A stretch of 64,000 nt of DNA from Abditibacterium sp. Lineage in GTDB: Bacteria; Armatimonadota; Abditibacteriia; Abditibacteriales; Abditibacteriaceae. Position 1 is the first letter of the stretch, and each line of letters starts with the position of its first letter. Below, piece after piece: positions 444-17,959 of the stretch. Location: the NCBI GenBank assembly GCA_030448265.1, contig JAUJNG010000013.1, forward strand, positions 94,621 to 158,620, read 5' to 3'. Under the pieces are notes generated by a model, which saw only the letters and a list, made by a program, of their open reading frames with translations, did not search any database and was not told the origin of the DNA. The translations under genes and the position numbers were made by a program.

Positions 444-543
444 GCCTGCAGCGGTGTGAACCTTCTCAAAGGGGCGTTTCACCCTGAAACGGAACCGCTT
501 TAAGCGGCGATGAATACGCTTTAGCTCTTCTTGCGAAGCATCC

Positions 544-1734
544 CTATCGAACCGCTTGCGGCACGAGGCGCAAAAGTTCGCCGTCCTGTTCGTCGGTCAA
601 AAGATACAGATGACCATCGGGCCCCTGACGCACGTCGCGCACGCGGCGCCCGATGGGCAGACGTTCCTGGTTCACGACCTTGCCGTTGGCATCCAGAACC
701 ACGCGGCGCACATCGCGCGTAGCCAGACCGCCACTGAACAGATTGCCCCTCCACTGCGGAAACTTGTCGCCGGTGTAGTAGGCCAGACCGCTCGCGCCAG
801 GCGAAGGCGTCCAGGCGACCAGGGGATCAACCATTCCGGCTTTGGTTTTGAGGCCCACCGGTTCGCCAGTGCGATAATCGCCACCCAGCGAGACCACCGG
901 CCAGCCGTAATTTTTGCCTGCCTGGAGCAAATTCAACTCATCGCCGCCGCGCGGCCCGTGTTCGGTCGCCCAGATGCGCCCTTGCGGGTCGCGGATCAGG
1001 CCCTGAATGTTGCGATGGCCGATGCTCCACAGTTCAGGAAGCGCCCCTTCTATTCTGGAAAAAGGGTTGTTGGGCGCGGCTTTGCCGTTTTCGTCGAGGC
1101 GCAACATCGAGCCCTGGTGCGAAGCTACGTTTTGCGCCTGCTCGCGCGCCAGAACGCCCCCGATGCGCGTGGGAGGATTGCCGCCATCGCCGATGCTCAT
1201 CAGCAACGTGCCGTCGGGCAGCCACAGCAAACGCGAACCGAAATGAGCGCCGCCGCTTTTCTCGAGGCCCACCTGGAACAAGGTTTGAATGTCTTTGACC
1301 CGCTCGCCGTCATACACGCCACGCACCAGCGTGGTGCGATTGGCGCGGCCCGTGCCGGTGGAAAGCGTGAGGTAAACCCATTTGTTGGCGGCGAATTTGG
1401 GATGCAGCGCGATATCGAACAGACCGCCCTGTCCGCCGGTGAAGACCTGGGGCATTCCAACCAGTTCGATTTCTTCGAAAACCCGTCCGTTGACGCGGTG
1501 GAGGGTGCCGTCTTTCGAGGTGACGAGCATTTGTCCATTGGGCAACCAGACTATGCCCCAGGGACGCACCGCGCCCTGGGCAACGGTTTCGACCTTCCAG
1601 CCTTTGGCTTGGGGCGGTGGGCCGGAAACTTCGGGCTGAGCCTGCACACAAGACATCGAAAGGGCGCCCAGAGCCAGGGAAACCACGCCGGTTTGCACCC
1701 TGCGCGCAGCGGTGTTGGGAAAACGAAAAGTCAT
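544..1734 (-). CDS. PQQ-dependent (glucose/sorbosone) sugar dehydrogenase, secreted
   Basis: Motifs PWGI, GQGGLFDIALHP, HFGSRL, GHRNIQG, EHGPRGGDELN, NYGWP, GRRVRDV. Signal-like N-terminus from ATG 1734. Confidence 0.92.
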   Translation of the reverse strand: MTFRFPNTAARRVQTGVVSLALGALSMSCVQAQPEVSGPPPQAKGWKVETVAQGAVRPWGIVWLPNGQMLVTSKDGTLHRVNGRVFEEIELVGMPQVFTGGQGGLFDIALHPKFAANKWVYLTLSTGTGRANRTTLVRGVYDGERVKDIQTLFQVGLEKSGGAHFGSRLLWLPDGTLLMSIGDGGNPPTRIGGVLAREQAQNVASHQGSMLRLDENGKAAPNNPFSRIEGALPELWSIGHRNIQGLIRDPQGRIWATEHGPRGGDELNLLQAGKNYGWPVVSLGGDYRTGEPVGLKTKAGMVDPLVAWTPSPGASGLAYYTGDKFPQWRGNLFSGGLATRDVRRVVLDANGKVVNQERLPIGRRVRDVRQGPDGHLYLLTDEQDGELLRLVPQAVR

Positions 1735-1758
1735 AAAATAATTCCTAAAATAATTGGA

Positions 1759-1830
1759 GGTGTTACGCAGTTGAAAACTTGGAAGAGGGTGCAAGCCCCG
1801 CCTCACCCAAGTTTTCAACTGCGTAACACC
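1759..1830. repeat. Palindromic miniature element with 24-bp perfect arms
   Basis: ggtgttacgcagttgaaaacttgg (1759-1782) is the exact reverse complement of 1807-1830. Confidence 0.85.
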
Positions 1831-2024
1831 AAAATTGCTTGATCGCGCCACAAAACCATCTCGCTCCATGCGACGTTTGAAACAAAAGCGTTCAATATCA
1901 AATCAAGTGGACGTGGCGATGCCCTCTTTTAGTCTCTGGGCAGCCCAAAAGGTTCCATTCTCGCCCTCATATTCTGTGCTGGTTGGGTTCGCCCTGGAAC
2001 TTTTCGATGCTGGCAACGACTCGC

Positions 2025-3092
2025 TCAACGCATTGAGTGTGCCGTTGCCTGAGCAGGCGCTGAGGTCAAACGGACGGTCACCTGGGCGGTGCGACCGCCG
2101 CGTCGCAGCCCAAGTGACAACACATCACCAGGACGGCGAGCGCGCAGCACACGGCGCAGGTCGCTGCCTCGATTGACCGGCGTCTCATCAGCGCGCGTGA
2201 TGATGTCCTGCGCGCGAACTCCCGCCTGCGCCGCCGGTGAGCCGGCCTGAACATCCTGAACCACGACGCCCTGACGCACCGGCATATCGAACTGCTGCGC
2301 GGTTTCCGGCTCGACATCGCTGTAGCTGATGCCCAGTTGAACGCGTTGCACCCGCCCCGTTTCGAGCAGCTGCTGCGCGATGCTGCTGGCCAGGTTAATC
2401 GGAATGGCGAAACCCAAACCGCTGGCGCCATTGCCGCGCAGCACGGCGGTGTTGATGCCGATGACGCGGCCCCGCGAGTCGAGCAGCGGCCCGCCCGAGT
2501 TGCCAGGGTTGATCGCGGCATCGGTTTGAATCAAGCCGTCCATCTCGAACCCGCTGCGATTGATGGCGGAGACCACGCCTGTCGTGACGCTGCGGTCAAG
2601 GCCGAGCGGGTTGCCGATGGCGATGCTGGCCTGCCCCGCTTGCAACTGATCGGAATCACCCAGAGGTGCCCGAGGAAAACTGCCGCCGGCTATCTTGACA
2701 ACCGCAACATCGGCGCTCGCGTCGCGGCCCAAAACGCGGCCCACCAGCCGGCGCCCATCAGCCAGTTCGACGCGCACTTGTTGAGCCCCACCTACAACAT
2801 GGGCGTTGGTCAAGAGCACGCCGTCGGAGCGGATGAGCACGCCCGATCCCATGCCGCCGTTGCGGCTGACGGTGACAACGGCGGGCGATACCTGCCGCGC
2901 CACGCGGATGATGTTCTGCTCTTCGCTGCTCATCGACGGCGCGTCGATAAAGCGCGCGTCCTGCGCCCACGCCAGAGGCAGCGCCAAGGGCCACGAGTGC
3001 GCGTTCTGAACTAATCCCTGCCCAATGCCCACACCGGTTCCCAGCGCGAGCGCCAGACCAAATGGGCGAAGTGACTTACTAAGTTTCTGCAT
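2025..3092 (-). CDS. htrA: HtrA/DegP-family trypsin-like serine protease with a PDZ domain
   Basis: [28 protein letters not shown] and a C-terminal PDZ. Start at ATG 3092 (MQKLSK). Confidence 0.93.
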   Translation of the reverse strand: MQKLSKSLRPFGLALALGTGVGIGQGLVQNAHSWPLALPLAWAQDARFIDAPSMSSEEQNIIRVARQVSPAVVTVSRNGGMGSGVLIRSDGVLLTNAHVVGGAQQVRVELADGRRLVGRVLGRDASADVAVVKIAGGSFPRAPLGDSDQLQAGQASIAIGNPLGLDRSVTTGVVSAINRSGFEMDGLIQTDAAINPGNSGGPLLDSRGRVIGINTAVLRGNGASGLGFAIPINLASSIAQQLLETGRVQRVQLGISYSDVEPETAQQFDMPVRQGVVVQDVQAGSPAAQAGVRAQDIITRADETPVNRGSDLRRVLRARRPGDVLSLGLRRGGRTAQVTVRLTSAPAQATAHSMR

Positions 3093-3353
3093 TGTCCTTC
3101 TTTGCCGTCCTTTTTTATTGCCCCTGCGACCTACCCGAAGTTCTTCGTCCGCGTGCCACAAATGGGCGAGCAAGTCACTTGCGTAAGTGACTTGCGGCGG
3201 CGAAAACATAACAGAAGAGCCAGCCAGGAAGCGTCGCAGCGAGAAAACTCTGCGACACCTGCTCTGGCAGGCTCTTAATTTAGCGAGAGTTGATCGATGG
3301 AGAGACGATGTTTATCGTCTTTACGTTCATCGGTTTCCGCCTTGATCGCTCCG

Positions 3354-3537
3354 CGCGCAATTGTGATGAAGCTCACCCGACTCTGGACAAAAAGAGACAG
3401 AAAGAGGAGGCAGGGGCGCAACTCCTACGTGAAATCCGCGCCCCTGCCTTGCAGCCTTCGCGTGGAGTGACACCGCCTCACGGCTGGGTTTGAGTCTCAA
3501 TCGCTGGAGGCAACCCCTCAAGGCACCCAATCGTGTG
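3354..3537 (+). ncRNA. Candidate structured ncRNA (rod-like, 6S-RNA-like)
   Basis: 12-bp apical stem 3408-3419/3438-3449, ctca-ccc pairing with gggtttgag, wobble-rich end pairing, purine-rich internal bubble, about 185 nt. Folded by eye only. Confidence 0.3.
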
Positions 3538-3609
3538 TTGGAACACTTCTTCCTCACCAGCCGGCGTGTGATTCCTCGCGTTGAGAACATCCGGCAGAGA
3601 TCAATCCTT

Positions 3610-4535
3610 ATGATGAAAAAACCTGTTCGCTTTTGTCATTGTGGCTGTGCTGTCTGGCTTTTAGCCCGTTCTCGTGGCAAGGCACCTCACGAGCCGAGGC
3701 GCAAGTGCGGCCCAATCCAGTCATTCGCAACGTCGTCTATGGCGAAGCCGGTGGCCAAAAACTCCTGCTCGATGTTTACGGTGCCAATCCCGCCCTCACG
3801 CGCCCCGCCATCATCTTCGTGCATGGCGGCAGTTGGAGCAGCGGTTCCAAGCACGACCTGGGCTTTGCGGCGGCGGCCCTGGCGCGTCAGGGTTATGTGG
3901 GCTTCTCCATCAATTACCGGCTGCTGCGAAACGGCAGGAACCGCTTTCCGGCTCAACTTGACGACGTGCAGCGAGCGGTGCGCTGGGTGCGCGCTCACGC
4001 CCGCGAATACGGCGTGGATCCGCGCCGCATCGGTGCCCTGGGCGCTTCTGCCGGCGGGCATCTGGCGGCTTTGCTGGGCACGACCGACACGCGCGACAAC
4101 AGCGATGCGGCCCTGGCGCGCTACTCCAGCCGTGTCCAGTGCGTTGTCGATCTTTATGGCCCAACCGACTTCACACCGGCTTTGGACCCCGCCAACCAGA
4201 GGAGGATGGCTGCCGCGAAATCTCCAGGAGCGGGGATCGTGCAACAGTTTCTGGGGCCCCTGCCCCAGGCTGCCGACAACTACCGTCTGGCTTCGCCCAT
4301 CACGCACATCGACAAGAAAACGGTGCCTTTCCTGATTTTTCATGGCGGCAGGGACACCCTGGTTCCGCTCGACCAGTCTCAGCGTCTGCACCGCGCGCTG
4401 CGCGCTGCAGGTGTCGAGTCGAGGTTGATTGTTTTTCCCGAAGCGGGTCATGGCTACACGGAGCCGAGGCTGTTGGCGCAAACCTTCGCTGCCGTTCAGG
4501 AGTTTTTCAACCGGCACCTCAAGACGTCCCCCTGA
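3610..4535 (+). CDS. Secreted alpha/beta hydrolase (BD-FAE/HSL-like esterase); probable 1-nt frameshift in the signal peptide
   Basis: HGGSW, GASAGGH nucleophile elbow, HGGRD, GHG. ATG 3610 (MMKKPVRF) joins the 3633 ORF if the T4 run at 3631-3634 were T5. Confidence 0.88.
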
Positions 4536-4608
4536 CCCCGAAGTAAGTTGAGAATTGGGCTCAAGAACAATGGCTCCATTCGCGCCTGATTTGGCTTAAG
4601 TCAATGCT

Positions 4609-5274
4609 ATGTCCCCAACCGAAGAAAGTTACACCTATCCAGCCGTGACTGTCGATGCGATTGTCTTCACCATTCGGCAGGAACAGTTGCAAGTTGCCCT
4701 CATCAAAAGGGGCATCGAACCGTTCAAAGGCTCCTGGGCGATTCCTGGCGGCTTCGTGCGTCTCGACGAATCTCTCGAAGACGCCGTGAAGCGCGAATTG
4801 AACGAGGAAGTCGGAGCCGATGGCGTCTATCTGGAGCAGCTTTACACCTTTGGCGAGCCGGAGCGCGATCCGCGCGGCCGCGTAATCACCGTGGCTTACT
4901 TCGCCCTGGTCGCCGCCGAGAACCTGCGCGAACTCACCGCCGCGACCGATGCCGCCGAAGCGCAGTGGTTTTCTCTGCATGATCTGCCTCCTCTGGCCTT
5001 CGACCACCGCCAAATTTTAGACCTCGCCCTGGGCCGGCTGCGCGCCAAGCTGGAATACAGCACCATCGCCTACGCGCTGCTGCCCAGAGCATTTCCGCTC
5101 ACCCAGCTTCAAAAGGTGTATGAGATCATTCTCGACCGCCCGCTCGACAAGCGCAATTTCCGCAAGAAAATCCTCTCCCTGGGCCTTCTCGAACCCACCG
5201 ACGAGCGTTCCGGCGGCGCGCATCGACCGGCGACGCTCTACCTCTTCAAAAACAGCCAGGTGACTTTTTTCTGA
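4609..5274 (+). CDS. nrtR: NrtR-family regulator (NUDIX plus winged HTH)
   Basis: VTVDAIVF, WAIPGGFV, NUDIX box RELNEEVG, QLYTFGEPERDPRGRVITVAY, LAFDH, C-terminal DKRNFRKK...HRPATLY. Confidence 0.92.
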   Translation: MSPTEESYTYPAVTVDAIVFTIRQEQLQVALIKRGIEPFKGSWAIPGGFVRLDESLEDAVKRELNEEVGADGVYLEQLYTFGEPERDPRGRVITVAYFALVAAENLRELTAATDAAEAQWFSLHDLPPLAFDHRQILDLALGRLRAKLEYSTIAYALLPRAFPLTQLQKVYEIILDRPLDKRNFRKKILSLGLLEPTDERSGGAHRPATLYLFKNSQVTFF

Positions 5275-5303
5275 CTTAACCGCCCCAAATTTTCCTCCCG
5301 CCC

Positions 5304-5366
5304 TTGACAAGCGATGGAGTAAGTGTAAAATTAACACCAACGCCGGAGTTAGTGTTCATTTCACGC
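5304..5366 (+). promoter_or_regulatory. Sigma70-type promoter overlapped by two NrtR-like operators
   Basis: TTGACA 5304-5309, 16-nt spacer, TAAAAT 5326-5331. GTGT-N7-ACAC at 5323-5337 and GTGT-N7-ACGC at 5352-5366. Confidence 0.65.
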
Positions 5367-5402
5367 GAACTCAATCATTTCGCCGGTGTGAAGGAGGAAC
5401 CA

Positions 5403-6554
5403 ATGCTGGTGACCCGCTCAACCCTGGAAGCGATAGCGCCGCGATTAGAAGGCGCGGCATGTCCCGAAGAAGTCTTTGGACTTTTGGCGGGCCAAACACC
5501 GGAAAAGCTCGCGGCGCTGAAGTCGGTGCAGCGCGGGCTGACGCGGGCCTGTCATCCCGATCTGGCGGCGCCCGCAGACAAAGCTCTGGCGACGCAGTTG
5601 TTTCAGTCGCTGGGGATTTGGGAGGGCATCGCCCGTCTGAAAATCGAAAATGGCACTTACGGCGATTTTCAGCCCTATCGCGCTCCAAGTCCGCCTTACA
5701 CACCGGTCGAGCTCGTGGTGCGCGGGCGGGCGCTGAAACTCACCGGCCTCATTGTCGAAGGCACTTTCGCGGGTGTTCACCGCGCCGAGTACGAGGGCGA
5801 AGACGATTCGCAGCGCGCCGTCTTCGTGAAAATCGCCCGCAGCGCGGGGGACAACGACTTACTGGAGCGGGAGTATCGGGTTTTGAAAGGGTTTCAGCAG
5901 ACCGATCCCGATCCCGACGCGGAGGATTTCCTGGCGACGCAGCGCGCTTATGTGCCCTGCCCTCTCACGTCTTTTTCTCTTCTGGACGAGAGCGGAGCCA
6001 AACACCGCGCCAACGTCCTGAGCGTGCCGCAGGGACGCTGCCTCACGGCGGAAACGCTGCGCCGCGACAAATATCCGTGTGGCATCGAGCCGAAACACGT
6101 GTGGTGGATTTTCAGGCGCCTGCTCCTGACGATTTGGATGGCGCATCTGAAGGGCACTGTTCATGGCGGAGTCACCCCCGACCATGTGCTGGTCTTTCCC
6201 GAAGCGCACGGTCTGGTGCTGCTGGACTGGACGTGTGCGGCTAAAATCGAAGAAGAACACGTTCCGGCCATTAATCCCGCTTACAAGGCTTTCTATCCGC
6301 CGGAAATCTTTCGCAAAGAGGCGGCGCTGCCCGCGACGGATTTGTTTATGGCGGCAGCCACCGCGATTGATATGCTCGGCGGTGATCCAGGCAAACGCTG
6401 GATTCCGTCTGCGGTGCCCGCTGCTCTGGGAGAAGCGCTGCTGAGCTGTCTCGACCCCATCGCGTCGCGCCGCCCGCAGGATGCCGAAGCGTTTCACAAC
6501 CAGTTCGGCGCTTTGCTGGGCCGGCGCATCTACTCCCCAATGCTCATCCCCTGA
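5403..6554 (+). CDS. N-terminal J-domain-like (HPD) region fused to a Ser/Thr-kinase-like domain lacking the catalytic Asp
   Basis: RBS aaggagg. RACHPD; VFVKIA (VAIK Lys); LLEREY; HGGVTPDHVL in place of HRDxKPxN; LLDW; FYPPE; DLFMAA. Confidence 0.8.
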   Translation: MLVTRSTLEAIAPRLEGAACPEEVFGLLAGQTPEKLAALKSVQRGLTRACHPDLAAPADKALATQLFQSLGIWEGIARLKIENGTYGDFQPYRAPSPPYTPVELVVRGRALKLTGLIVEGTFAGVHRAEYEGEDDSQRAVFVKIARSAGDNDLLEREYRVLKGFQQTDPDPDAEDFLATQRAYVPCPLTSFSLLDESGAKHRANVLSVPQGRCLTAETLRRDKYPCGIEPKHVWWIFRRLLLTIWMAHLKGTVHGGVTPDHVLVFPEAHGLVLLDWTCAAKIEEEHVPAINPAYKAFYPPEIFRKEAALPATDLFMAAATAIDMLGGDPGKRWIPSAVPAALGEALLSCLDPIASRRPQDAEAFHNQFGALLGRRIYSPMLIP

Positions 6555-6614
6555 GCCAACACGACCCGCACCGCTCTTGCGCGGTGCATTCCCGAAATGG
6601 GAAAGGACTCTATC

Positions 6615-7652
6615 ATGGGTGCAGGAATTTTCAATACTTCGGCCAGCGCGGCCCGCGCCAATATGCGCGCCCGCAGCGGCGCCACCGCGTTTACTCACGA
6701 CCTCGCGGCGCGAGCGGGCAAAGCCGCGCTGCTGCACAAAAGCCTGGATGTCACCAGGAAGCCGCGACGCGAGTCGCGCGATGTCGCGGGCAAGCCGCCG
6801 GCGACTCCCATCATGGTCTGGCTCGATGTCACCGGCAGCATGAGCCAAATTCCCAGCTTGCTGATTCAAGACCTCAATAAGCTGATGAGGCTCATCGTGG
6901 ACGGCAAAGTCGTCACCGACCCGCAGATCTGTTTCGCCGCCATCGGCGACGCGACCAGCGACCGCGTGCCGGTTCAGGTGGGCGAGTTCGAGGCGGACGA
7001 CAAGCTCGCCGAGGCTCACCTTGCCAACATTTTTCTGGAAGGCGCGGGCGGCGGCCAGAACAGGGAATCGTATGAAATGGCGCTGTGGTTTGCCGGCAAT
7101 CAAGTCGATACCGATGCCTTCGAGAAGCGCGGCGAAAAGGGATTTCTCTTCCTCATCGGCGACGAAGCGCCCTATGGCAAGGTGCGGCGCGATTTGGTCA
7201 AAACCTATCTCGGCGTGCCAATCCAGAAAGACGTGTCGCTCAAAGAAGCGGTCGCACAGGCTTCGCGGAAGTTTCACGTTTTCGTGATTCGTCCTGGCGG
7301 CACCAGCAACTACGCCGATCCCAATGTGCAGCGCGCCTGGACATCGGTTCTGCCCGCCGAGCGGGTGATCAAGCAGGAGAACTGGCAGGACATCGTTCCT
7401 CTCATGGCGGGCATGATTTCGGTGATGTCGGGCGAGAGCCTCGACGACATTCGTCCTGGTTTCGCAGTGCGGCCATTTGGCAATCATGCCGATCCCTGGT
7501 TCCCCGCGCAGCGTCTGTGGCCAACGGTTCGGCATCGCCCGTGCGGGGATGGTGGCGGCGCGCCTGGACATCCTGATGTTCCAACCGCGCAGCGTCTGGT
7601 GATCAAATCCAGGATTGAACTGGAGACATCGTTCCTCTCAGCGCGAGCATGA
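6615..7652 (+). CDS. vWA (MIDAS) domain protein; 3' end probably garbled
   Basis: RBS aaagga. DVTGSM MIDAS, AIGDA, EGAGGGQNRESYE, FLIGDEAPY. Sequence after about 7450 loses protein-like character. Confidence 0.82.
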   Translation: MGAGIFNTSASAARANMRARSGATAFTHDLAARAGKAALLHKSLDVTRKPRRESRDVAGKPPATPIMVWLDVTGSMSQIPSLLIQDLNKLMRLIVDGKVVTDPQICFAAIGDATSDRVPVQVGEFEADDKLAEAHLANIFLEGAGGGQNRESYEMALWFAGNQVDTDAFEKRGEKGFLFLIGDEAPYGKVRRDLVKTYLGVPIQKDVSLKEAVAQASRKFHVFVIRPGGTSNYADPNVQRAWTSVLPAERVIKQENWQDIVPLMAGMISVMSGESLDDIRPGFAVRPFGNHADPWFPAQRLWPTVRHRPCGDGGGAPGHPDVPTAQRLVIKSRIELETSFLSARA

Positions 7653-9161
7653 TCCTTGATGTCGCTGAATTGGTGAGCGACGCACGGTTTCGGCGATGGC
7701 CGCCTCTTTCGACAGCGCGGGCATTGATGCACACGGCAAATCGCTGGTCTCACTTTTGGCCAAAAGGTTCGATCACCGATGCCCTGGTCGCGGGGATGGT
7801 GGCGGCGCGGATCTGGTGGTGCGCCGTCAGCAACGGCGGTGCCCAGGCCAAATCCAGTGATTGACGAACTTTGAGACGGGCTGCCACATCTTTCATCGCT
7901 CGGCAGCGGCACCCTGGTGGAAGGCTTCCAAAGCTTCATTAAAGGAGGGCGCGGTGCACACGGCATTTGTTATGCTTTTGGGTCAATCCGCTCGCTTGCG
8001 CACCAGCAGCGGTGCATTGACGAAGCGAGGACATCTTTCATCAGTTCGGCAGCGGCACCCAAGAACTCGCTCGCTTTGCATTACGAGGAATTGGCGCTCC
8101 AAGAACTGGGCGTTAAGGATGCGGCGGAGCGAATGTTTGTCGATGCCAGAGCATTGGTGACCACGCCCTACCACATGATTTTCAACCAACTCAGGGAATT
8201 ATCGCGCGGGGAAGGCAGGCATGGATCGTGTGGCCTGGGCATTGGCGAAACGGCGGCGGATGCTCTCGATTTCGAGCCGGATGTCCTGCGTTATAGCGAC
8301 CTGAGCAACCAAGGGTTGCTGGGATGCAAGCTGCGCTGGCACCGCGATCTCAAGCGGCGCCAGTTGGAAGGGTTGATGGCACCGTTGGCTGCCCAGACGG
8401 GTGCGGCGAGACGGAAAATTCACGCTCTGCTAAGCCAGATGGAGAGTGAGGACGAGATGGAAGCGGCCCACGATGTCTTTGCGGCCATCGCCGAACGCTT
8501 CAAACTCGCGCCGCCCGATTTCCTGGCCGCGAGGATGAGGAAATCGGGAGCGACGGTGTTTGAAGGCGCGCAGGGAGTGCTCCTCGACGAAAGATGGGGC
8601 TTTCATCCCCACACGACCTGGTCGAACACCACGCCCGCCAACGCGCTGCAACTCATCAAGGAAACGCGGTGCAGCATTCAAACCACCGTGCTGGGATTGA
8701 CTCGCGCCTACGGAACTCGTCACGGCACCGGCCCCTTTCCAAGCGAAGATGAAGGGGTGACTCTGGCCCTGCCCGAACCGCACAACCCAACCAATGAGTG
8801 GCAAGGCCCATTTCGAGCCGGATGGCTCGACCTTTCTTTGCTCCGTTACGCTATTGAGGTCAGCGGTCGGATCGATGGCCTGGTAATCACCTGTCTGGAT
8901 CGCGTCAAAGACTTGCCGGAGGTTAAAGTAGGAACCGGCTATGGGATCAAGGGCGACTCGTGGCACCTGACTCCCAACTATTCCGCTGGTCTGGCGGAGC
9001 AGGAGAAAATGGGGAAGATGCTGGGTGAGGTCGATGTAACTTACACGCCCGCTCATCCCGAACCACCGGCGTATGCTCGGCAGGTAGCGGAATCGCTCGG
9101 CCTGCCTCTTCTGGGGTCTTCCTTTGGCCCCACGGCTCGAGACAAAGTGTTCGCATTTTAA
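7649..9161 (+). CDS. Divergent adenylosuccinate-synthetase-like (PurA fold) enzyme; 5' part frameshifted or jumbled
   Basis: ATGA overlap with the vWA stop. Fragments GFGD, KGSITDAL, NGGAQA, HIFHQFGSGT lie in different frames. Intact part has HGSCGLGIGET, FEGAQGVLLD, RAYGTRHGTGPFPSE, GWLD, ITCLD, SFGP. Confidence 0.8.
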
Positions 9162-9553
9162 AGCGGTTCTCGTTTGAGTTGATCCACGCTCGTTGGTAGG
9201 GACATGGCCTGCCACCTAATGTGTGACTTATTTTTCAATGGCTGAAGAGCCAGAAAGCTTGTGTGCCAGGAGGCTGAAGCCTCGGCAAGCAAACCAAGCC
9301 TGCCTTCGCAGGCTACACCTCATCCATAGGCCACGCAGGTGGCCTTGGTTTGGTTGCCGAGGCTTCAGCCTCCTGGCACATCCTGGAACACCTTGGAACA
9401 TCCTGGCACACAAGCCATCATCGTAGACTCTCACACTCCCCAAGAGTCACACATTAAGTGGCAGGCTATGTCCTTCGAGGGAGTAAGAAGCACCACAAGG
9501 ACATGGCAGGCCATGTCCCTACGAACCTGTCATTTCATTCGAGAACCGCTTTA
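9159..9553. mobile_element. Nested composite palindromic element (MITE/REP-like)
   Basis: 14-bp perfect terminal IR taaagcggttctcg/cgagaaccgcttta. Inner GTAG-REP arms 9196-9228/9445-9473 and 9498-9522. Inner arms about 9262-9298/9344-9380. Four 10-bp tandem units at 9371-9410. Confidence 0.75.
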
Positions 9554-9733
9554 AGCTGGTTGGCCTTCTTGAGAGGTGAAAGCGGCCATTGGGCCGCAAA
9601 CTCTGCCTGAAGCCCAATACACGCGCAAGCGAGGAGCTTGATTGAATTTTTCAATGCTCCAGTTGCCGTTGAGGTGCTGTTCTTCGACAACCTAAGGTTC
9701 AAGCCAGACGGTGGAATCGCGCGCCATGAAAAA

Positions 9734-10585
9734 TCAGTGCCGCAATAGGAACTCCGCGACTTCTCTCCACCACGCCGCGCGCGGATCGATGTCGAGCGTG
9801 TTGTGTCCGGCGTCGTGCTGAATCCACAACTTCTTCGGGCCACCGTAGCCCTCGAAAAGCGCCTGGCCAAACCGAGTCGGCACAATGTCATCTTTGCCGG
9901 CCAGCAACACCGCGACGCGGCCCGAGTATTTTTTCAGGGCCGCCGCCGCTTCATATTTGTCTTGCAAAACGAGGCGAACCGGAAACATCGGAAAGCGACT
10001 GGCCGCGACATCGGCGGTGCTGGTGTAAGGCGTGACCAGGAACAAACCGCGCACGTCGCGGGGATGCTGGGCCGCCAGCAGGCACGCCACGCCAGTCCCC
10101 AGCGATTCGCCGGCGATATAAAGTGGTCGCGGGTCGTTTTTCAGCAGTTGGTTCAAGGCCGCGTTCGCCGCCGCCACGATTTCGCTCTGGTTCGCCTGGC
10201 CTTCTCGCCAGCCATAGCCAGGATATTCCAGGCAGTAAAAGTCCCACTCTTTTCCATCGCGCTGCGCCCCAAGTCCGTCCATGAAATAGGTGCGCGTGAG
10301 AGCGTGCCCGCCGTTGCCGTGCAAAAGGAGCATACGGTTTTGCGCGGGTTCTGGCGCTTCGCGTTTCCAGCCAATAAGTGCGCCCTGTGCATCGCGCCAC
10401 GGCTGCACTTTGTGCTGCGGGGCGAGCGCGAGAAATTCGCTTTCCTGCCCGCGAGTGGGATGATACATGAAAGTGCGCTGCATCAAAGCGAGAACGAGAA
10501 ATACGCTCGCGTAGACGCTCAATGCGAACCATAACAGCTTAATCGCCATGTGCTTTCGAGAAGAGACAGCGCGCAAAGTCTTCAT
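9734..10585 (-). CDS. Membrane-anchored alpha/beta hydrolase (ABHD13/Bem46-like)
   Basis: LLLHGNGG, EYPGYG, GESLGTGVA, DDIVP, GHN; N-terminal TM helix. Confidence 0.88.
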   Translation of the reverse strand: MKTLRAVSSRKHMAIKLLWFALSVYASVFLVLALMQRTFMYHPTRGQESEFLALAPQHKVQPWRDAQGALIGWKREAPEPAQNRMLLLHGNGGHALTRTYFMDGLGAQRDGKEWDFYCLEYPGYGWREGQANQSEIVAAANAALNQLLKNDPRPLYIAGESLGTGVACLLAAQHPRDVRGLFLVTPYTSTADVAASRFPMFPVRLVLQDKYEAAAALKKYSGRVAVLLAGKDDIVPTRFGQALFEGYGGPKKLWIQHDAGHNTLDIDPRAAWWREVAEFLLRH

Positions 10586-10644
10586 GGTATCCCGTTTGGA
10601 ATGGCGCGGTGACGTCAGCCGACAGGGCCATCTCATCAGGAATT

Positions 10645-10760
10645 ATTCACCGCCCTACGCAGAGGCGCAAAGGTAAAAAACGAGAGTGAAAAGCGAGGCT
10701 TGGGGGCCAAGGCAGAGCTTCCCCGCTTTTTTCTTTGCGCCTCTGCGTAGGGCGGTGAAT
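10645..10760. repeat. Palindromic MITE-like element (caccgc..cagaggcgcaaag family)
   Basis: 28-bp perfect arms 10645-10672/10733-10760. Confidence 0.85.
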
Positions 10761-10849
10761 CAATTTCTGATGCGATGGCCCTGAGTCAGCCGAAAACCTC
10801 GCTTTGGATAGACGCCCGCTCCTGTCACACTGCCAGAGTTGAGATTACG

Positions 10850-11881
10850 ATGCCACAAAAGAGCGTTCGTTCCCATCGCGGCGAGCTGCCTGCCGCTCCC
10901 CAGACGCCTCCGCAACGGGTGTCCAGAGCCATGACGGGTGTTTCGGCGCTGCTTTGCCTGGGCCTGACGCTTTGCTACTGGCGGCGGCCCGATGCCTTCG
11001 CTGCGGTCACGATTTTTCCGGTCGGGTGCTGGTTTGTGCTTGGACTGCTGCTGACCGCTTGGGGCTGGAATCGCAGCCTTGCGCGCCAGGCCAAGTGGGT
11101 GGGAGCGATGTGGCTGGGGTTTCTGTTGATTTTCGCCGATGAACCCCGCAGCCTCCTGCGCGCGCTCCTGCCTCCACCGTCTCGAGATGAAGCGCGCAAC
11201 CTGCGCGTGGTTTCGCTCAATTGCAGTGCCGGCGATCCTTTGGCGGCGGCAGAAGTGGCGAAGTGGAAACCCGACGTGGTGCTGCTTCAGGAATCTCCGT
11301 CGCGCGCCGATGTCGAGCGACTGGCGCGCAGGCTGTTTGGAAAAGAGGGTGATTTCCTCTGGGGCGTCGATGGTTCCATCCTCGCTCGCGGCAGGCTGAC
11401 CCCGCGCCCGCTCTCGTCGGCCCTACGCAACTACTTTGTCCAGGCGCGCCTTCAATTACCGCAGGGCCAGGAGGCGGAAGTGCTGAGTCTGCGCCTCATG
11501 ACGCCGCCGTTTCGCATCGACTTGTGGTCACCATCGTGTTGGGAGGCTTATCCTCATAACCGTCAACTTCAGCGCGACCAGATGGGTGCCATCAGGGAGC
11601 AGTTGGGCGCGGTTCCCGATGAGCGCGCCCTCATCGTGGGCGGAGACTTCAACGCTCCTCAGGGCGATGCGATTTTCGGTGCCCTGCGCCCCCGCCTGCG
11701 CGACAGCTTCTCCCGCGCGGGCCGAGGCTGGGGCAATACCATCATCAACGATTTCCCCGCACTACGCATCGACCAAATCTGGGCCAGCGAGGCGTTGCAG
11801 CCGCGAAGTGTGAGAGCGCATCAAACCCAGAACTCCGATCACCGCGCCGTTATCGCCGATTTTCGCTGGAGCACCAAGTGA
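10850..11881 (+). CDS. Membrane endonuclease/exonuclease/phosphatase (EEP) family protein
   Basis: Three N-terminal TM segments; VVSLNC, LLQES, GGDFNA, RIDQIW, SDHRAV. Confidence 0.88.
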   Translation: MPQKSVRSHRGELPAAPQTPPQRVSRAMTGVSALLCLGLTLCYWRRPDAFAAVTIFPVGCWFVLGLLLTAWGWNRSLARQAKWVGAMWLGFLLIFADEPRSLLRALLPPPSRDEARNLRVVSLNCSAGDPLAAAEVAKWKPDVVLLQESPSRADVERLARRLFGKEGDFLWGVDGSILARGRLTPRPLSSALRNYFVQARLQLPQGQEAEVLSLRLMTPPFRIDLWSPSCWEAYPHNRQLQRDQMGAIREQLGAVPDERALIVGGDFNAPQGDAIFGALRPRLRDSFSRAGRGWGNTIINDFPALRIDQIWASEALQPRSVRAHQTQNSDHRAVIADFRWSTK

Positions 11882-11966
11882 TTCGCCTTCAATACGATGG
11901 GACTGGGCTGAGCGTGGAGTTTCAATACACCCTGATGACGCCGGTTATTTGAGATTGAGATGTGCG

Positions 11967-12074
11967 GCTTAACGTTTAATCTCACCCGCAACCGGAAGCC
12001 GAAGCGCAGTGGAGCGAGGAACGAGCGGAACGAAGCGCAGGCTGTAGAAGGTCGGGTGCTGCGCCTTGTTGTGC
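11967..12074 (-). mobile_element. Integron attC site (108 bp)
   Basis: Minus strand: R'' GCACAAC, 5 nt, L'' GCAGCACC, central imperfect palindrome, L' GGTGAGA, 6 nt, R' GTTAAGC. Lies 16 nt after the stop of ORF 12091-12450. Confidence 0.8.
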
Positions 12075-12090
12075 TGCTTGTCGGTCGCTT

Positions 12091-12450
12091 TCAATCAGTG
12101 ATTTTGAGATCGTTGAGCGTGTGTTCGCTTGGCCCCGACAAATTTACTGAGACTTTTTCTCTTGGCACTGCGTTGGAATATGTCGGCAAACCAACGATAA
12201 CCAATAAAAAATCTTCTATCACGCTCGCAGCGTTCATGTTTATCCACGAGTGACCAGCATTTAGATGTTTTTCAAATAGTGCCGTATATTCATCTGGTGT
12301 TACAAGCGCAGAACGAGGAACGAGGCTAACCTCACCATGTGTGATGTCAGTATCCTCAGCAATCAAAATGCGCGACCACGAAAGCGGCTGTTGGGACGAA
12401 CCGAGCCAAGAAGTAAGTCGTTCGAGATGTCGTTGGAGTTCGCTTATCAT
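12091..12450 (-). CDS. Hypothetical gene-cassette ORF (about 119 aa), lower GC
   Basis: ORF ends just before attC and is AT-richer than its flanks. No motif recognised. Confidence 0.6.
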   Translation of the reverse strand: MISELQRHLERLTSWLGSSQQPLSWSRILIAEDTDITHGEVSLVPRSALVTPDEYTALFEKHLNAGHSWINMNAASVIEDFLLVIVGLPTYSNAVPREKVSVNLSGPSEHTLNDLKITD

Positions 12451-12562
12451 TATCTTCAAGTTTCACTTTCCGAAACGCCGCGCGCAAGCAGAACAACAAC
12501 GTCGCTGTGTCGAAGCGCACGGCGTCGCACAGATGGAAACTGAGTTAGTAGAATGGAGAGTT

Positions 12563-13075
12563 ATGGGCAATATCCAAGAACGTCCACTCACCGACGAAGA
12601 AAAAGCAGAGTTTGAGACGCGTTCGTCGCGGGCTCTCAAGAATCTGGGTGTCAATGCCCCTGAAGCCAGTGCGGAATCTATTGTTCAACTGGTCGATGCT
12701 TTCGTGGATAAATGGCAAACCGGCGGCTTCGCGCCACGAAAGTCATTGTTCAGTCGCAAACCGGCTTTGCCCGACAGTGTTGATGTCGCATTGGGCCTGG
12801 GTGCCGTGTGGGGAGATCAAATCGTCAGGAAATTTGGCTGGGAATGGACGTGTCTTCAACAGGACGGACAAGATTTATATTGTGTCGCTTCTCAAGACTG
12901 TGGCTGGGTCATTTATCCCACCTATTTCCTCAAGGCGTGTCTTGACAATCCCCATGCCGATTGCACCGCCATGCTGAGTTTCAACATGCTGGCGGCGGGC
13001 AATATTCCTGCAAACCCCGCCAATAGTTATGAGAACCTGATGGGCGGAGTTCAAAGGGTCGTCCCCAAGCGTTAA
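12563..13075 (+). CDS. Hypothetical protein, DUF3806-like
   Basis: RBS ggag before ATG 12563. ALGLGAVWGDQIVRKFGWEW...GWVIYP resembles DUF3806; lower GC. Confidence 0.55.
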   Translation: MGNIQERPLTDEEKAEFETRSSRALKNLGVNAPEASAESIVQLVDAFVDKWQTGGFAPRKSLFSRKPALPDSVDVALGLGAVWGDQIVRKFGWEWTCLQQDGQDLYCVASQDCGWVIYPTYFLKACLDNPHADCTAMLSFNMLAAGNIPANPANSYENLMGGVQRVVPKR

Positions 13076-13158
13076 AATCTCGGCGCCCTTGTTCCACCTC
13101 ATCGTCAGGTGACTCACATCGGGACAAGGCGATTCGATGATGGGCGAAAAGCCATGGA

Positions 13159-13196
13159 AAAAGCCGCGCACTTCGCAATGCGCGGCTTTTGGTTTT
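13159..13196 (+). terminator. Intrinsic terminator
   Basis: aaaagccgcgca-loop-tgcgcggctttt followed by a T-rich tail. Confidence 0.75.
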
Positions 13197-13613
13197 TGTC
13201 GAGGCTCTATTCGCCTCGTTCCACGAGATAACGCATCTCGCCATCGACCAGAATCACACCCAGCACGCGGCGCCACTGCGACTCCGTTTGCGCCTGATGC
13301 TTTCCTGCTTCTTCGTTCGACGGCTTTTCCCCACTAAAGATAAAGGGGTTGTCCCCCTGGGTTTGAAACGTGTTCAAGGTGTTCATTTGTCCTTTCCTTC
13401 GCTCGGATTGTGGAGGTCAAAGACGCCTTCAACTCCATATTTGTTCGTCAAGAACTTTCAGTTCCTCGCCCTGAGTGGGCTACGAGGAAACACGCAAAAG
13501 CCAGCCTACAAGCTGTTCCCCGCGATCTTATTCCCAATAGGCTCTTGGCGAATGGGCGGCAGATCAAATCGCCCTCTATCGGGGCGCGGGTCTGGCCGGA
13601 CGCTCTTTGAGAG

Positions 13614-15965
13614 TCAGTTTGAAGGGTGAACATTGCTCTGGGCGTCGTAGAGCCACTGGCACCACTGCGCCCGCGTCATCGAAGCGCCGCTTTTGCGGGG
13701 CGAAGCGGCAGACGAATGGCGCCGCCCCAGCAGTTTCAGAGCGTTGAAGAGCCACTCTCTGGCCTCGGATGAGGTGAGCGGATCATTGGGGCGCAGTTCG
13801 GGGGACGCCGCGAGAATTTTCCAGTGCCGCAGCGAGTGCGCCGCGATGAAAGCGGCGTGGTCGGGCCGCAGATCGGAAAAAGCACTCGCGTCGTCGATGG
13901 CGGGCCGCAGCTCCGGTTTTTGGGTTTGCAGCCATTTCCACCCCCACTCCAGGGCCTGCGCGCGCGTAATGGCGGCGTCCGGTCGAGCCTCGTATTCAGG
14001 GAAAAACCCTTTGGTGCCAAAGTATTGAAGCGCCGCCCAGTGCGGGTGCTCCAAAGGCACATCGGTGAACACGCAAATCACCTGACCTTGCCGGAGCAAC
14101 TGCCTTTGTATTGCCTCGATGTCAAGGCGCGAAGGCGCGAGATTTTCCTTCACCGCGAGATGAGCCGCCACGCCCGCCGCCGTTCCAAGCGACATAAAAA
14201 CCGGCTCCATCCGCAAAGTGCCGTAGCCGATGTGCGAAGACGACACGCAAACGCTCACCACCACGCCTTCGATGCCCAGGGGAATCATGGTGCCAAAAGG
14301 CACCTGTGACGGCTGAGTCTGGTTTCCTGGCAGATAAAAAAAGCCTTCCAGCAGGCCGTTTTTTTCGGGCGAGGTGGCGTGGGAGTCGATGGGATAATCG
14401 GCAACGGCAATGCTGTCGGGGTGAAAATTGGGACGGCGCTCCGGCACGAGCGAGCGCGCATCGTTTTCGGTAAAAGTCGCGCGGCCCACGATGCGGCGGC
14501 CTTCGCGCACATAAAGCTGAGTTGGAAAGTGGTTGTTATCGACGAACTCATCGCTCGCAAAGCCCCAGCGCCCCGCTTCCTGCCGGAAAGAGAGCGGCAC
14601 GTCGGGATCGTTTTGCACAAAGTAGAGCAGTCCCAGAATATGGTCGCGGTGAGCCTGCGCCAGAGCTTCGCGCTCCCAGAGATCGGCTTCGGGATAGGAA
14701 TCGCTGCCGCCGATCAGGTCGGTGGAAGGATTGCCCAACGGATGGTTGTTGGCATCGAACTTCCCTGCGGGGAGGGGCAAAATGCTCATCACCTGCTCCA
14801 GACTTTTGATGCGGCCACTTGCGATGTCGGGAAGCAGCGTCAGATAACGGTTGCGGTCGTAGGATTTGGGAGCGGGAAACGGGGTGAGATTGTCGGCGCG
14901 CTGGGTGAGAATAAGGCGGTAATTATACGCCTGCACCTTACGGTCGCCCTTTCCACTGCCGAACTGCACGCGGCGCTGAAGCGGATCCCAGAAAAGTTCT
15001 CCGGCGTGTTCTTCGCCAAACTCGCCTTTGCCTTCGCGCCCAATGCGATATGCGGCGCCGGACTGCGCTGCCAGATCGCCTTCGTAGGTGGCGTCGATGA
15101 AAACTTTGGCGCCCAGCGTTTTGCGAATCATGCGCGGCCTGTCGATCACATAAAGCGCGCTGACGCGGTTGCCCTGCTTCTTCACGTCGCGCGAATGGTG
15201 GTCGAGCATCACGGAAAGGTTGGGCTGCCCCGCGAGCATACGCCCAAACACCCACTTGGCGACGCGCGGTTCGAAATAGTAACCGTCGCGACTCGCTTTG
15301 AGCTGGGGCGAATCGGGGCCGTAAGTCGTCGCGTAATAATGGCGCACGTTGTCGGCGAACTCTTTGAACAGCCCGCCGGAAGACTTCATGGAACCGAAAT
15401 CGGTGCGAGTGAGACCGCCCGTCATCATGCCGCCCAGCCAGGGCGAGGGACTCACCAAAGCCACTTTCTCGCCCAGGCGCGCCGCGCTGAGCGCCGCCGC
15501 GATGCCGCCTGGCGTGGCGCCCACCACCACGACATCGAAGGCGGCGCGGGTTTCGCGCGTGGTTTCGTTGGGAAGGCGCGTCGCGTCGGAAATCGGCGGC
15601 GACAAAACTTCCCCCGCGCCCCCAACGGCTGCCACCGCGTAGGAATACACCGTATTGGGAGTCAGACCGGAATTTTTGAACTCGCGCGCTTCCCCGCCGA
15701 GCGCGGCCACGATCTGCCCATCGCGATAAATGCGAAAACCCCCAGCGCTCACCCCCGAATTCCATTGCAAGAGAAAAGTGGACGGAGACAAAGCCTGTAA
15801 ACGGGTAATGAGAGGACGCGGCGCGGACGAATGGATTTCACTCTTTGGCGTGGGAGAGGCTGGAGCGAGGGGATCAGCCCAGGCGCAGGTCGAAACAGCA
15901 CTGCAAAGACTCAACCCAAATACGATTTTTCGCAACACACTTTTTCGAGACGGCATGACCTTCAT
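13614..15965 (-). CDS. Secreted FAD-dependent oxidoreductase with an N-terminal FN3 domain and C-terminal SLH-like repeats
   Basis: VVVGATPGGIAAA, FIDATYEGDL, QAYNYR, YVREGRR, LRMEPVFM. FN3 motif LTPNTVYSYAV; C-terminal FTDVP...ITRAQ. Confidence 0.88.
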   Translation of the reverse strand: MKVMPSRKSVLRKIVFGLSLCSAVSTCAWADPLAPASPTPKSEIHSSAPRPLITRLQALSPSTFLLQWNSGVSAGGFRIYRDGQIVAALGGEAREFKNSGLTPNTVYSYAVAAVGGAGEVLSPPISDATRLPNETTRETRAAFDVVVVGATPGGIAAALSAARLGEKVALVSPSPWLGGMMTGGLTRTDFGSMKSSGGLFKEFADNVRHYYATTYGPDSPQLKASRDGYYFEPRVAKWVFGRMLAGQPNLSVMLDHHSRDVKKQGNRVSALYVIDRPRMIRKTLGAKVFIDATYEGDLAAQSGAAYRIGREGKGEFGEEHAGELFWDPLQRRVQFGSGKGDRKVQAYNYRLILTQRADNLTPFPAPKSYDRNRYLTLLPDIASGRIKSLEQVMSILPLPAGKFDANNHPLGNPSTDLIGGSDSYPEADLWEREALAQAHRDHILGLLYFVQNDPDVPLSFRQEAGRWGFASDEFVDNNHFPTQLYVREGRRIVGRATFTENDARSLVPERRPNFHPDSIAVADYPIDSHATSPEKNGLLEGFFYLPGNQTQPSQVPFGTMIPLGIEGVVVSVCVSSSHIGYGTLRMEPVFMSLGTAAGVAAHLAVKENLAPSRLDIEAIQRQLLRQGQVICVFTDVPLEHPHWAALQYFGTKGFFPEYEARPDAAITRAQALEWGWKWLQTQKPELRPAIDDASAFSDLRPDHAAFIAAHSLRHWKILAASPELRPNDPLTSSEAREWLFNALKLLGRRHSSAASPRKSGASMTRAQWCQWLYDAQSNVHPSN

Positions 15966-16105
15966 ACTCTCTTTGAATTGTTTCGGCGCGAAGTGTGGTT
16001 CGGCCAATGGTTATTAATATAATAGTTTATTTTCCTGCGTCAAACTCTCACTTCGTGGTTTTCGACTCTTCTGTTCCTTCCTCAAATCCGCAACACTGGT
16101 TACTG

Positions 16106-17137
16106 ATGATTCCGCCCCTGCACCGCTACAAACTCCCTTTGTTCGCCATTTCGTGCCTCGCCAGCGCGTGTTTTCCGGCCCTGGCTCAACAAACCCGACC
16201 TCCTTCCACTTCGATGACCGTCCCGCAGCCGACCTCGCTTTCTCCTTTTGCCGACGACCTAACGCGGCAGATTTTGGCGCGCTTTGTGGGCGAAAAACTC
16301 AAAGCCGACGAGTTCGCCTGGACGCTCATCGATCTGCAAAATCCGGTGGTGCCCGCCATCGCCGGTTATCGCGCCGATGAGCCGATTTATCCGGCGAGCG
16401 TCGTCAAATTGTTCTATCTGGCGGCGGCGCAGCACCAACTCGAAAGCGGGCAAATGCCCGACACGCCCGAACTGCGCCGCGCTCTGCGCGACATGATCGT
16501 CGATTCCAGTAACGACGCGACGGCGCTGGTGCTCGATATGCTCACCGGCACGACGGGCGGGCCGGAACTTTCGCCCGCAGAGTTCGCGCTCTGGGCGCAA
16601 AAACGCAACGGCGTCAACCGCTTTTTCGCCGGTCTGGGCTTCGGCGGCATTAATGTCAATCAAAAACCGTGGAACGAAGGCCCCTATGGCCGCGAACGCC
16701 AGTTTGTCGGCCCCAATTACCACAACCGCAACAAACTCACGACGGCGGCCACGGCTCGTTTGCTTTCTCAAATCGCGCGGCGCCAGTGGGTTTCACCCGC
16801 GCGCTCCGACGAGATGCGCGAACTTTTGAAACGCGATCCGACGGCCAAAGCGAGCGCCGACTCCCAGGTCGCGGGCTTTATCGGCGCGGCCATTCGCGAC
16901 GTTCCTGGCGCGGCGCTGTGGTCGAAAGCGGGATGGACGAGCAAGACCCGCCACGACGCGGCTTACATCGAACTGCCAGTTTCACCCCAATTTCCGCGCG
17001 GGGCGCGCTTCGTGCTGGTAGTTTTTACTTCCAACCATGCCCCAAATACCCAGATGTTGCCCGCGATGGCGCGTTTGATCATCGACAGGCAGTTTGGCAG
17101 TAGCGCTGCCCAAGTGAACACGGCCCAGGTGAAATAG
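16106..17137 (+). CDS. Serine hydrolase, class A beta-lactamase-like fold
   Basis: PASVVK (SxxK), DSSND, WSKAG; signal peptide. Confidence 0.85.
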   Translation: MIPPLHRYKLPLFAISCLASACFPALAQQTRPPSTSMTVPQPTSLSPFADDLTRQILARFVGEKLKADEFAWTLIDLQNPVVPAIAGYRADEPIYPASVVKLFYLAAAQHQLESGQMPDTPELRRALRDMIVDSSNDATALVLDMLTGTTGGPELSPAEFALWAQKRNGVNRFFAGLGFGGINVNQKPWNEGPYGRERQFVGPNYHNRNKLTTAATARLLSQIARRQWVSPARSDEMRELLKRDPTAKASADSQVAGFIGAAIRDVPGAALWSKAGWTSKTRHDAAYIELPVSPQFPRGARFVLVVFTSNHAPNTQMLPAMARLIIDRQFGSSAAQVNTAQVK

Positions 17138-17147
17138 ACTGGCGCCG

Positions 17148-17921: not shown

Positions 17922-17959
17922 CAACGCGGCGCCGTGGCCCTCGCCCAATTTTCTTGCGA

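Follow-up and report, generated by a model that had tools for sequence, protein, structure and literature searches.

The locus at 8080-9161 of a 64,000-nucleotide stretch of Abditibacterium sp. DNA (contig JAUJNG010000013.1, positions 94,621 to 158,620; the whole stretch is referred to as the window) raises the question of whether the PurA-like protein encoded there is an adenylosuccinate synthetase or an enzyme with another reaction. Its sequence makes it very improbable that the protein is an adenylosuccinate synthetase and places it within a large group of PurA paralogues, so far uncharacterised and defined here by alignment, which is termed the clade below. The best explanation, favoured with modest confidence, is that the protein is a GTP-driven ligase of the PurA type that uses an amine other than aspartate and works in a module tied to NAD/ADP-ribose status. 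The main interest of the locus lies in this module, a conserved set of four genes that is common to bacteria and phages and is linked to NAD/ADP-ribose.

The open reading frame (ORF) at 7917-9161 (plus strand, frame +3) matches Pfam PF00709 (Adenylsucc_synt) with E=8e-44, but at profile positions 75-362 only; the match of intact homologues spans positions 5-413. These homologues consist of about 442 amino acid residues (aa), and their N-terminus, MHxAxVxTDLTFGDAGKGS...NGGAQAAHT, is absent from the ORF. The translation of the ORF contains HGSCGLGIGE (8220-8249), FEGAQG (8559-8576), GPFPSE (8730-8747), NPTNEWQGPFR (8784-8816), GWLD (8820-8831) and TCLD (8889-8900), all on the plus strand. The region at 8068-9161 (plus strand) carries codons ~79-442 of the PurA-like enzyme, is identical to read-derived contigs and encodes HGSCGLGIGE, FEGAQG, TRHGTGPFPSE, NPTNEWQGPFRAGWLD, TCLD and SFGPT; this 3′ 1.1 kb contains no frameshift at all. 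An earlier note on this DNA had presented 8080-9161 as the enzyme. The assignment to the PurA family (PF00709) stands, but this region is not the whole gene: it is only the 3′ four-fifths, and the N-terminal part with the P-loop is missing. The catalytic P-loop GDAGKG, with D13 and K16, is present in the intact gene derived from the reads (see below) and is destroyed in the window as assembled.

Residue-by-residue alignment to solved PurA structures (3ue9, 3hid from Yersinia and 1cg3/1ade, with 1ade from E. coli) places the window motifs at the positions of PurA IGTTGRGIGP, GATTGRRRR-TGWLD and TKLD. The scaffold motifs EGAQG, GPFPSE and GWLD, which the earlier note had reported to be in place, are located in the 8559-8831 region, and the alignment confirms the replacements that it had described (GATTGRxR by NPTNEWQGPFR, TKLD by TCLD and IGTTGRGIGP by HGSCGLGIGE). 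These altered motifs are real, but they are clade-wide (153 members) and not peculiar to the window copy. The intact 442-aa protein scores below the cut-off of each NCBIfam purA equivalog model examined, with 179 bits against NF002223 (cut-off 402) and 152 bits against TIGR00184 (cut-off 395.55), and also below that of the PurZ model NF038379 (54.8 bits; cut-off 300). A canonical purA was looked for within the window and none was found.

A scan of one genome per species gives 596 candidate loci, of which the best 80 are all members of the clade. These 80 loci come from Actinomycetota (Streptomyces, Nocardia, Micromonospora, Actinomadura and Rhodococcus), Chloroflexota, Myxococcota, Planctomycetota, Armatimonadota, Abditibacteriota, Saccharibacteria and Variovorax, and IMG/VR adds 185 further PurA-like loci. 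Conservation was counted over 153 non-identical members of the clade aligned to Yersinia PurA, with the numbering of E. coli PurA. G12, D13, K16, Q38, H41, E221, Q224, D229, R272, H273, G274, G276, R306, G308 and D333 are invariant in all 153 sequences, while G15, G17, T239 and D311 are kept in 151-152 (T239 in 151) and S414 in 131. Two of the invariant residues are themselves replacements, N38 by Q and V273 by H (each 153/153). The other replacements are those of T128 by S (139/153), T129 by C (149/153), S240 by W (146/153), T300 by W, F or Y (145/153), T301 by Q (149/153) and R305 by F, L or V (143/153). K331 is replaced by H in 114 sequences, C in 32 and N in 6, so that the TCLD of the window is a minority form. 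R143 and R303 are deleted throughout the 153 members. No characterisation or functional study of any clade member was found in the literature, where only genome announcements turned up.

For E. coli PurA, we take D13, H41, K16 and Q224 to be the residues that phosphorylate O6 of inosine monophosphate (IMP), D333 with S414 to specify guanine, T300/T301/R303/R305 to bind aspartate, and N38/T129/T239/R143′ to bind the 5′-phosphate. The residues of the L-aspartate site (T300, T301, R303 and R305) are all replaced or deleted across the clade. In the site for the 5′-phosphate and ribose of IMP, T239 is kept, N38 is replaced by Q, T129 by C and V273 by H, and R143′ and R303 are deleted. As read from the alignment, the clade retains the core for phosphotransfer and the Asp that specifies guanine, and has rebuilt its aspartate subsite together with one half of the subsite for the ribose-phosphate. 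The replaced positions are themselves nearly invariant (C129, W240, H273, W300 and Q301), suggesting that they form a new active site rather than a decaying one. The earlier view that the enzyme joins its nucleotide to an amine other than aspartate is well supported as far as aspartate is concerned, because the whole aspartate site is lost in the 153 members and the score of 179 bits lies far from the purA cut-off of 402. The proposal that it may use a different nucleoside triphosphate (NTP) is not supported by the alignment, in which D333 is invariant, S414 is mostly kept and only the Lys of TKLD is changed. GTP appears to be the likeliest donor, because D333 is invariant and the change in TKLD is confined to its Lys.

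The genes beside the PurA-like gene recur with it. Three unrelated long contigs contain the same three genes with different flanks. For their linkage, 80 genome loci and as many viral loci were examined by tblastn, and the gene order was counted on 64 genome loci and 72 viral loci. The order kinase-like, vWA, PurA-like is found in nearly all loci with enough flank. When the NrtR-like, kinase-like, vWA and PurA-like genes are denoted N, K, V and P respectively, the 64 genome loci include 33 with the order NKVP, 15 with KVP and 5 with KVPN. All three module genes are present in 62 of the 80 viral loci. No conserved fourth gene of the module other than the NrtR-like gene was found at the neighbouring loci.

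The kinase-like gene of the window (5403-6554, plus strand) encodes a J-domain, with its HPD motif, fused to a Hanks-type kinase fold, as identified by alignment, AlphaFold2 (AF2) and Foldseek. The AF2 model has a pLDDT of 93.6; its top Foldseek match is PknB (1mru), and the DnaJ-PKA chimera 4wb7 is also matched. Homologues of the protein match PF00069 and PF00226. In the alignment, D53 of HPD and E157 are invariant, and H51 and K143 are kept in at least 90% of the sequences. The β3 Lys and αC Glu of the kinase fold are kept, but HRD reads H-G-A/G, so that the catalytic Asp is missing, and in the catalytic loop the Lys is replaced by T or L and the Asn mostly by His. The product is predicted to be a J-domain pseudokinase and a recruiter of Hsp70.

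The next gene (6615-7447, plus strand) encodes a vWA-fold protein, again identified by alignment, AF2 and Foldseek. Its first ~277 codons are intact; the remainder, for the C-terminus, falls within the scrambled stretch described below and is lost. The protein gives no Pfam match, and its AF2 model (pLDDT 89) matches integrin I-domains and vWF-A3 in Foldseek. The metal ion-dependent adhesion site (MIDAS) is represented by DVTGS, GD..D and GDE, with D71-x-T-G-S75, D112/D116 and G-D183-E184 invariant. The N-terminal Met-Gly of the vWA proteins is also invariant, as is the GGG..E.Y core within a conserved loop, EG-GGGGQxxESYE. The tail consists of about 20 disordered C-terminal residues and ends with -RL in 20 of 28 sequences. 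The window contains a second, unrelated vWA-type gene (18799-20607, minus strand), which encodes a DUF2201_N metallopeptidase with a VWA-like DUF2201 domain. At another locus (L089, 2262-4358), the PurA-like enzyme of the module (P0041) carries a fused C-terminal Peptidase_S51 domain, which matches a cyanophycinase-like exopeptidase (6nqc; E=3e-30) and has an intact Ser motif, GCSAGAM.

Upstream of the kinase-like gene, 4609-5274 (plus strand) encodes an NrtR-like protein with a Nudix domain, whose Nudix box is intact, and a winged-helix DNA-binding domain (Pfam NUDIX, 2e-21; NrtR_WHD, 5e-26). It scores 182 bits against NF050029, the model of an ADP-ribose (ADPR)-responsive repressor with a cut-off of 400. 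On the basis of its domains, it is likely to be an ADP-ribose-responsive regulator or hydrolase of the module. An NrtR-like homologue adjoins the module in 43 of the 64 genome loci, as well as in the window and in the locus L003, usually directly upstream; in actinomycetes its gene overlaps the start codon of the kinase-like gene. The RELxEE catalytic helix is kept in most copies. Between the NrtR-like gene and the module of the window, a consensus scan (11/12) detects TTGACA-16-TAAAAT at 5304-5331 (plus strand), which is a candidate for a strong sigma-70-like promoter. It is followed by the palindrome TAACACCAACGCCGGAGTTA at 5332-5351, which is conserved in the orthologous spacer of L003 as TAACTCCAACGCCGCGAGTTA and may serve the neighbouring NrtR-like protein as an operator.

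NAD-related genes are found around some of the viral copies. In three IMG/VR loci (L094, L099 and L119), a NAMPT gene and an NMNAT-like gene flank the module, and several large IMG/VR contigs have the order NrtR, NAMPT, vWA, PurA-like, J-kinase, NMNAT-like. In L099 (2511-9555), and also in L094 and L119, all of these genes lie on one strand, the NMNAT-like protein is a cytidylyltransferase and a gene for a dNMP-kinase-like protein is located nearby. The Ralstonia phage RsoM2USA, which has the best phage NAMPT relative, does not have the module beside its NAMPT gene. In an Abditibacteriota locus (L001, 11464-18362), genes for NadC (quinolinate phosphoribosyltransferase) and a Tpt1/KptA-type, NAD-dependent RNA 2′-phosphotransferase are located 5-7 kb downstream of the module, which may be a coincidence.

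The module is also carried by 201 Mycobacterium phage records (cluster C1, Bixzunavirus). In the phage Pinkcreek, gp240 is the J-domain kinase-like protein, gp241 the vWA homologue and gp243 the PurA-like protein. The module genes are reported to be conserved in all members of cluster C1, and the clade is known in these phages under the annotation 'PurA-like adenylosuccinate synthetase' (PMC9476963). Pinkcreek gp241 (L170, 4897-6720) contains an intein inserted exactly in the KG(F/Y)xF|IGDE MIDAS motif and ends with ...ADRL; it is labelled as a hypothetical protein in the record and as an HNH endonuclease in the genome announcement.

If the protein is a GTP-driven ligase with a non-aspartate amine, the reaction would proceed as follows. 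The enzyme would bind GTP, and Asp13 as a base, His41 as an acid, Lys16 and Gln224 would transfer a phosphate to the oxo group of a substrate of the hypoxanthine or guanine type. The amine, which would not be L-aspartate, would then displace the phosphate. Gating of the enzyme, or a scaffold for it, would be provided by the vWA protein and by the pseudokinase that recruits Hsp70, and expression would follow the ADP-ribose/NAD status through the NrtR-like protein. The substrates, regulation and physiological role given here to the module are those that we infer. In the second step, the nucleophile may be ammonia or another small amine, used in a direct amination of the IMP-to-AMP type that would rebuild the adenylate and NAD pools; this version is the leading candidate, though in itself rather unlikely, and fits the NAMPT/NMNAT/NrtR neighbourhood and the carriage by phages. 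A peptide or protein amine, such as that of the free N-terminal Gly2 of the vWA partner, is a less likely choice, and fits the pairing with the vWA protein, the J-domain and the peptidase fusion. It is about as doubtful, or slightly more so, that the second step does not exist and that the enzyme acts as a kinase or switch. An equally speculative proposal is that the enzyme is a protein 'purinylase', by which the GTP-activated C6 of a hypoxanthine- or guanine-type nucleotide would be joined to the free N-terminal Gly of the vWA protein or another peptide amine to form an N6-linked adduct. Handling of the complex would then fall to the Hsp70-recruiting J-domain pseudokinase, and the module would be turned on in response to ADP-ribose levels. 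Such a purinylase, if it exists, would be used by phages and bacteria in a contest over NAD and adenylate pools.

Several points weigh against the proposal of a GTP-driven ligase tied to NAD/ADP-ribose status. The mechanism for the clade is deduced entirely from sequence, gene linkage and the folds of the partners. Plain binding of IMP could also explain why D13 and Q224 are kept, and even the acceptor is uncertain, because two arginines that bind phosphate and ribose, R143 and R303, are gone. A simple metabolic amination is not obviously in need of a vWA protein and an Hsp70-recruiting pseudokinase. The link with NAD comes only from the gene neighbourhood; most viral loci, of which 49 of 72 have KVP alone, lack NAD-linked genes, and so does the mycobacteriophage locus.

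Other explanations of the protein fit these data less well. It might be the ordinary purA product of the organism with divergent motifs, as would be expected from its PF00709 match well above the threshold, its conserved catalytic core and the label 'adenylosuccinate synthase' given to its homologues by public sources. This is highly improbable, however, because the aspartate-binding residues and R143 are lost clade-wide, the score is far below every purA equivalog cut-off, the gene is embedded in the vWA/J-kinase module, and the clade is present in Saccharibacteria, Streptomyces and lytic phages. The full reading of the earlier note, in which an NTP other than GTP is used and a nucleotide is joined to a protein side chain, would account for the replacement of K331 of TKLD by His, Cys or Asn, and also for the near-obligate vWA partner with its invariant Met-Gly and its disordered tail ending with -RL in 20 of 28 sequences. 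The fusion of a cyanophycinase-like peptidase to the enzyme in one lineage and the J-domain, which implies handling at the protein level, would agree with it as well. Invariant D333 and mostly kept S414 nevertheless point to guanine, and the protein adduct is hypothetical; this reading is improbable. Still less probable is that the protein has lost ligase activity and binds GTP only as a switch or scaffold, without catalysis. The remodelling of both substrate subsites would agree with this, but all residues for the phosphotransfer chemistry are invariant in 153 sequences from many phyla and phages, and the replaced positions are invariant in turn (C129, W240, H273, W300 and Q301), as in a new active site.

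It is also conceivable, though unlikely, that the genes form an abortive-infection or anti-phage defence module like the TerY-P triad, whose PurA-like member would deplete or poison a pool of nucleotides in the case of the present module. The module is self-contained, has variable flanks and is patchily distributed across phyla; its vWA and kinase-like proteins are paired as in TerY-P; and the kinase-like protein gives weak PADLOC matches to MkoA and PD-T4-6. The PADLOC scan of all three proteins, however, gives no match for the vWA or PurA-like protein, and ordinary metabolic genes flank the module in the window and in L001-L003. Furthermore, the module is conserved in every lytic mycobacteriophage of cluster C1, and in phage contigs it is found next to NAD-salvage genes; a role in favour of replication or in counter-defence fits these findings better.

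The truncation of the PurA-like gene in the window is caused by a scrambled stretch of ~620 nt at 7448-8067, which consists of 8-39 nt pieces of the 3′ end of the vWA gene, the spacer and the 5′ end of the PurA-like gene, interleaved and partly duplicated. The N-terminal codons of the PurA-like gene are scattered over three frames in this stretch and mixed with those for the C-terminus of the upstream vWA protein, which is disrupted by similar indels. DNA alignment with the three closest homologues gives indel runs of -5, -7, +8, +4, -2, +4 and -1, and about 105 extra bases. In an exact-match map, 7625-7925 forms a "zipper" of about 20 pieces of 8-28 nt, which alternate colinearly from two adjacent, non-homologous true segments, and a second mosaic is located at 7981-8067.

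The true arrangement is provided by Logan contigs of four public soil-metagenome runs (X1-X4), which are from one study and contain the organism. The contigs of X1, X2 and X4 have no mismatch to the window outside 7448-8067; inside it, the contigs of X1 and X2 have a different, intact arrangement, as does that of X4 for the 7925/8068 joint. Long X1 contigs have no mismatch to window 1-20000 outside the scrambled stretch, except for multi-copy repeats around 9158-9530. A displaced fragment at 7935-7973 (plus strand), with the true ribosome-binding site AAGGAGG and the GTG start codon (7954), is 39/39 identical to X1, and in the X1 contig it lies directly upstream of the P-loop codons. The PurA-like gene rebuilt from X1 is an open frame of 442 aa with AAGGAGG upstream, starts with V/MHTAFVITDLTFGDAGKGS and contains GDAGKG and GGAQAAHT. 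Comparison with four orthologues gives it a dN/dS ratio of 0.10-0.21, and one of 0.08-0.14 for its first 85 codons, values that indicate purifying selection. The vWA gene rebuilt from X1 is likewise intact and open, and ends with ...PTAQRL*.

The scrambled stretch is therefore very probably a merging, consensus or assembly artefact of the deposited contig, not a pseudogene, and the gene is probably intact in the organism, because the flanks are perfect, the mosaic is colinear and two-tracked, no indexed run contains the words sampled from it and both rebuilt genes are open. Three other origins of this stretch were considered, namely natural decay into a pseudogene, a mechanism of recombination or of diversity generation, and indel noise of the nanopore type; all were rejected on account of the piece sizes, the perfect flanks and the colinear mosaic of two tracks. 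It is very unlikely that the window sequence is real and that this strain has an allele with natural rearrangements and frameshifts, either a pseudogene or a gene for an N-terminally truncated 342-aa protein lacking the P-loop. The deposited contig does read so, and a 342-aa product is called on it; in addition, the artefact reading depends on Logan contigs, which drop rare variants, so that a minor natural allele may exist. Colinear alternation of two segments, however, matches no known mutational process and is produced when two misaligned sequences are merged. Moreover, the surrounding 18 kb has no mismatch to X1, 31-mers sampled from 7455-8060 are present in no indexed run, and the 3′ 1.1 kb is free of frameshifts. 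The scramble is also centred on an intergenic hairpin in the spacer between the vWA and PurA-like genes, where de Bruijn contigs, including those of Logan, break as well. The local assembly error creates two false truncated genes in the contig. The vWA product of the window is missing from database matches, and the source annotation may have called instead a 570-aa shadow ORF (5859-7571, minus strand) that is antisense to the kinase-like and vWA genes.

Two regions of high contig depth were also observed in the window. A miniature inverted-repeat transposable element (MITE)-like element is located at 9158-9530, just after the stop codon of the PurA-like gene, with the inverted termini TTGGTAGGGACATGGCCTGCCAC at 9193-9215 (plus strand) and 9503-9525 (minus strand). 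Its contig depth is about 10x that of the flanks in four runs, suggesting that many copies are present in the community or genome, and X1 contigs link this stretch to window positions ~17391 and ~18540-18750. The stretch at ~2484-2525, inside the gene for an HtrA-like protease (2025-3209), has a contig depth of about 200x in X1 with many loose ends, and is common to many other contigs.

PurA paralogues have earlier yielded PurZ and the Z-genome. The clade described here is much larger than PurZ, with members in hundreds of bacterial species of at least six phyla and in all C1 mycobacteriophages, and it is mis-annotated everywhere as adenylosuccinate synthetase. The kept chemistry residues, the two rebuilt substrate pockets and the partner trio of vWA protein, J-domain pseudokinase and NrtR-like Nudix protein together point to an undescribed nucleotide-modifying or nucleotide-salvage reaction, which is probably tied to NAD/ADP-ribose status in phage-host conflict.

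Among known systems, PurA itself (EC 6.3.4.4; PF00709; 1ade, 3hid) has the same fold and length as the clade and ~30% identity to it over nearly the full length. Both have the P-loop GD(A/E)GKG, D13, K16, H41, Q224, T239, GxGP, a GWLD-type motif, D333 and S414. The clade differs from PurA in that the aspartate loop GATTGRRRR is changed to N(E/x)WQG-xFR, R143 is deleted, and T129, S240, V273, N38 and K331 are replaced by C, W, H, Q and H or C respectively. It also falls under all purA equivalog cut-offs, and its genes are never found in a purine operon but sit with those for the vWA protein and the J-pseudokinase. PurZ/PurZ0 of the 2-aminoadenine (Z-genome) phages is likewise a phage-borne PurA paralogue with an altered substrate, and provides a precedent for repurposing of the fold; PurZ keeps aspartate as the nucleophile. 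Neither DatZ nor MazZ turned up among the annotated neighbours of the module, although no search aimed at them was made. The C1 mycobacteriophage proteins (for example Pinkcreek gp243 and those of Catera and ScottMcG) belong to the same clade, with 39-43% identity and the substituted motifs GGSCGKGIGE, WQGKFRQGHLD and THLD. Their locus has J-domain kinase-like and vWA genes as in the window, but differs in the intein of the vWA gene and in having no NrtR-like gene nearby. The TerY-P triad (the vWA protein TerY, a Ser/Thr kinase and a PP2C phosphatase) resembles the module in that a MIDAS-containing vWA protein is paired with a kinase fold of the Hanks type; in the module, however, the kinase lacks the catalytic Asp and has a J-domain, and the PurA-like enzyme takes the place of the phosphatase. 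To our knowledge, no PurA-type enzyme takes part in any described NAD pathway, and the link of the module to these pathways is one of neighbourhood only. The NrtR regulon and phage NAD+ salvage (NAMPT and NMNAT) resemble it in that an NrtR-like gene is adjacent to or overlaps the module in most bacterial loci, and that NAMPT and NMNAT-like genes flank it in several phage contigs.

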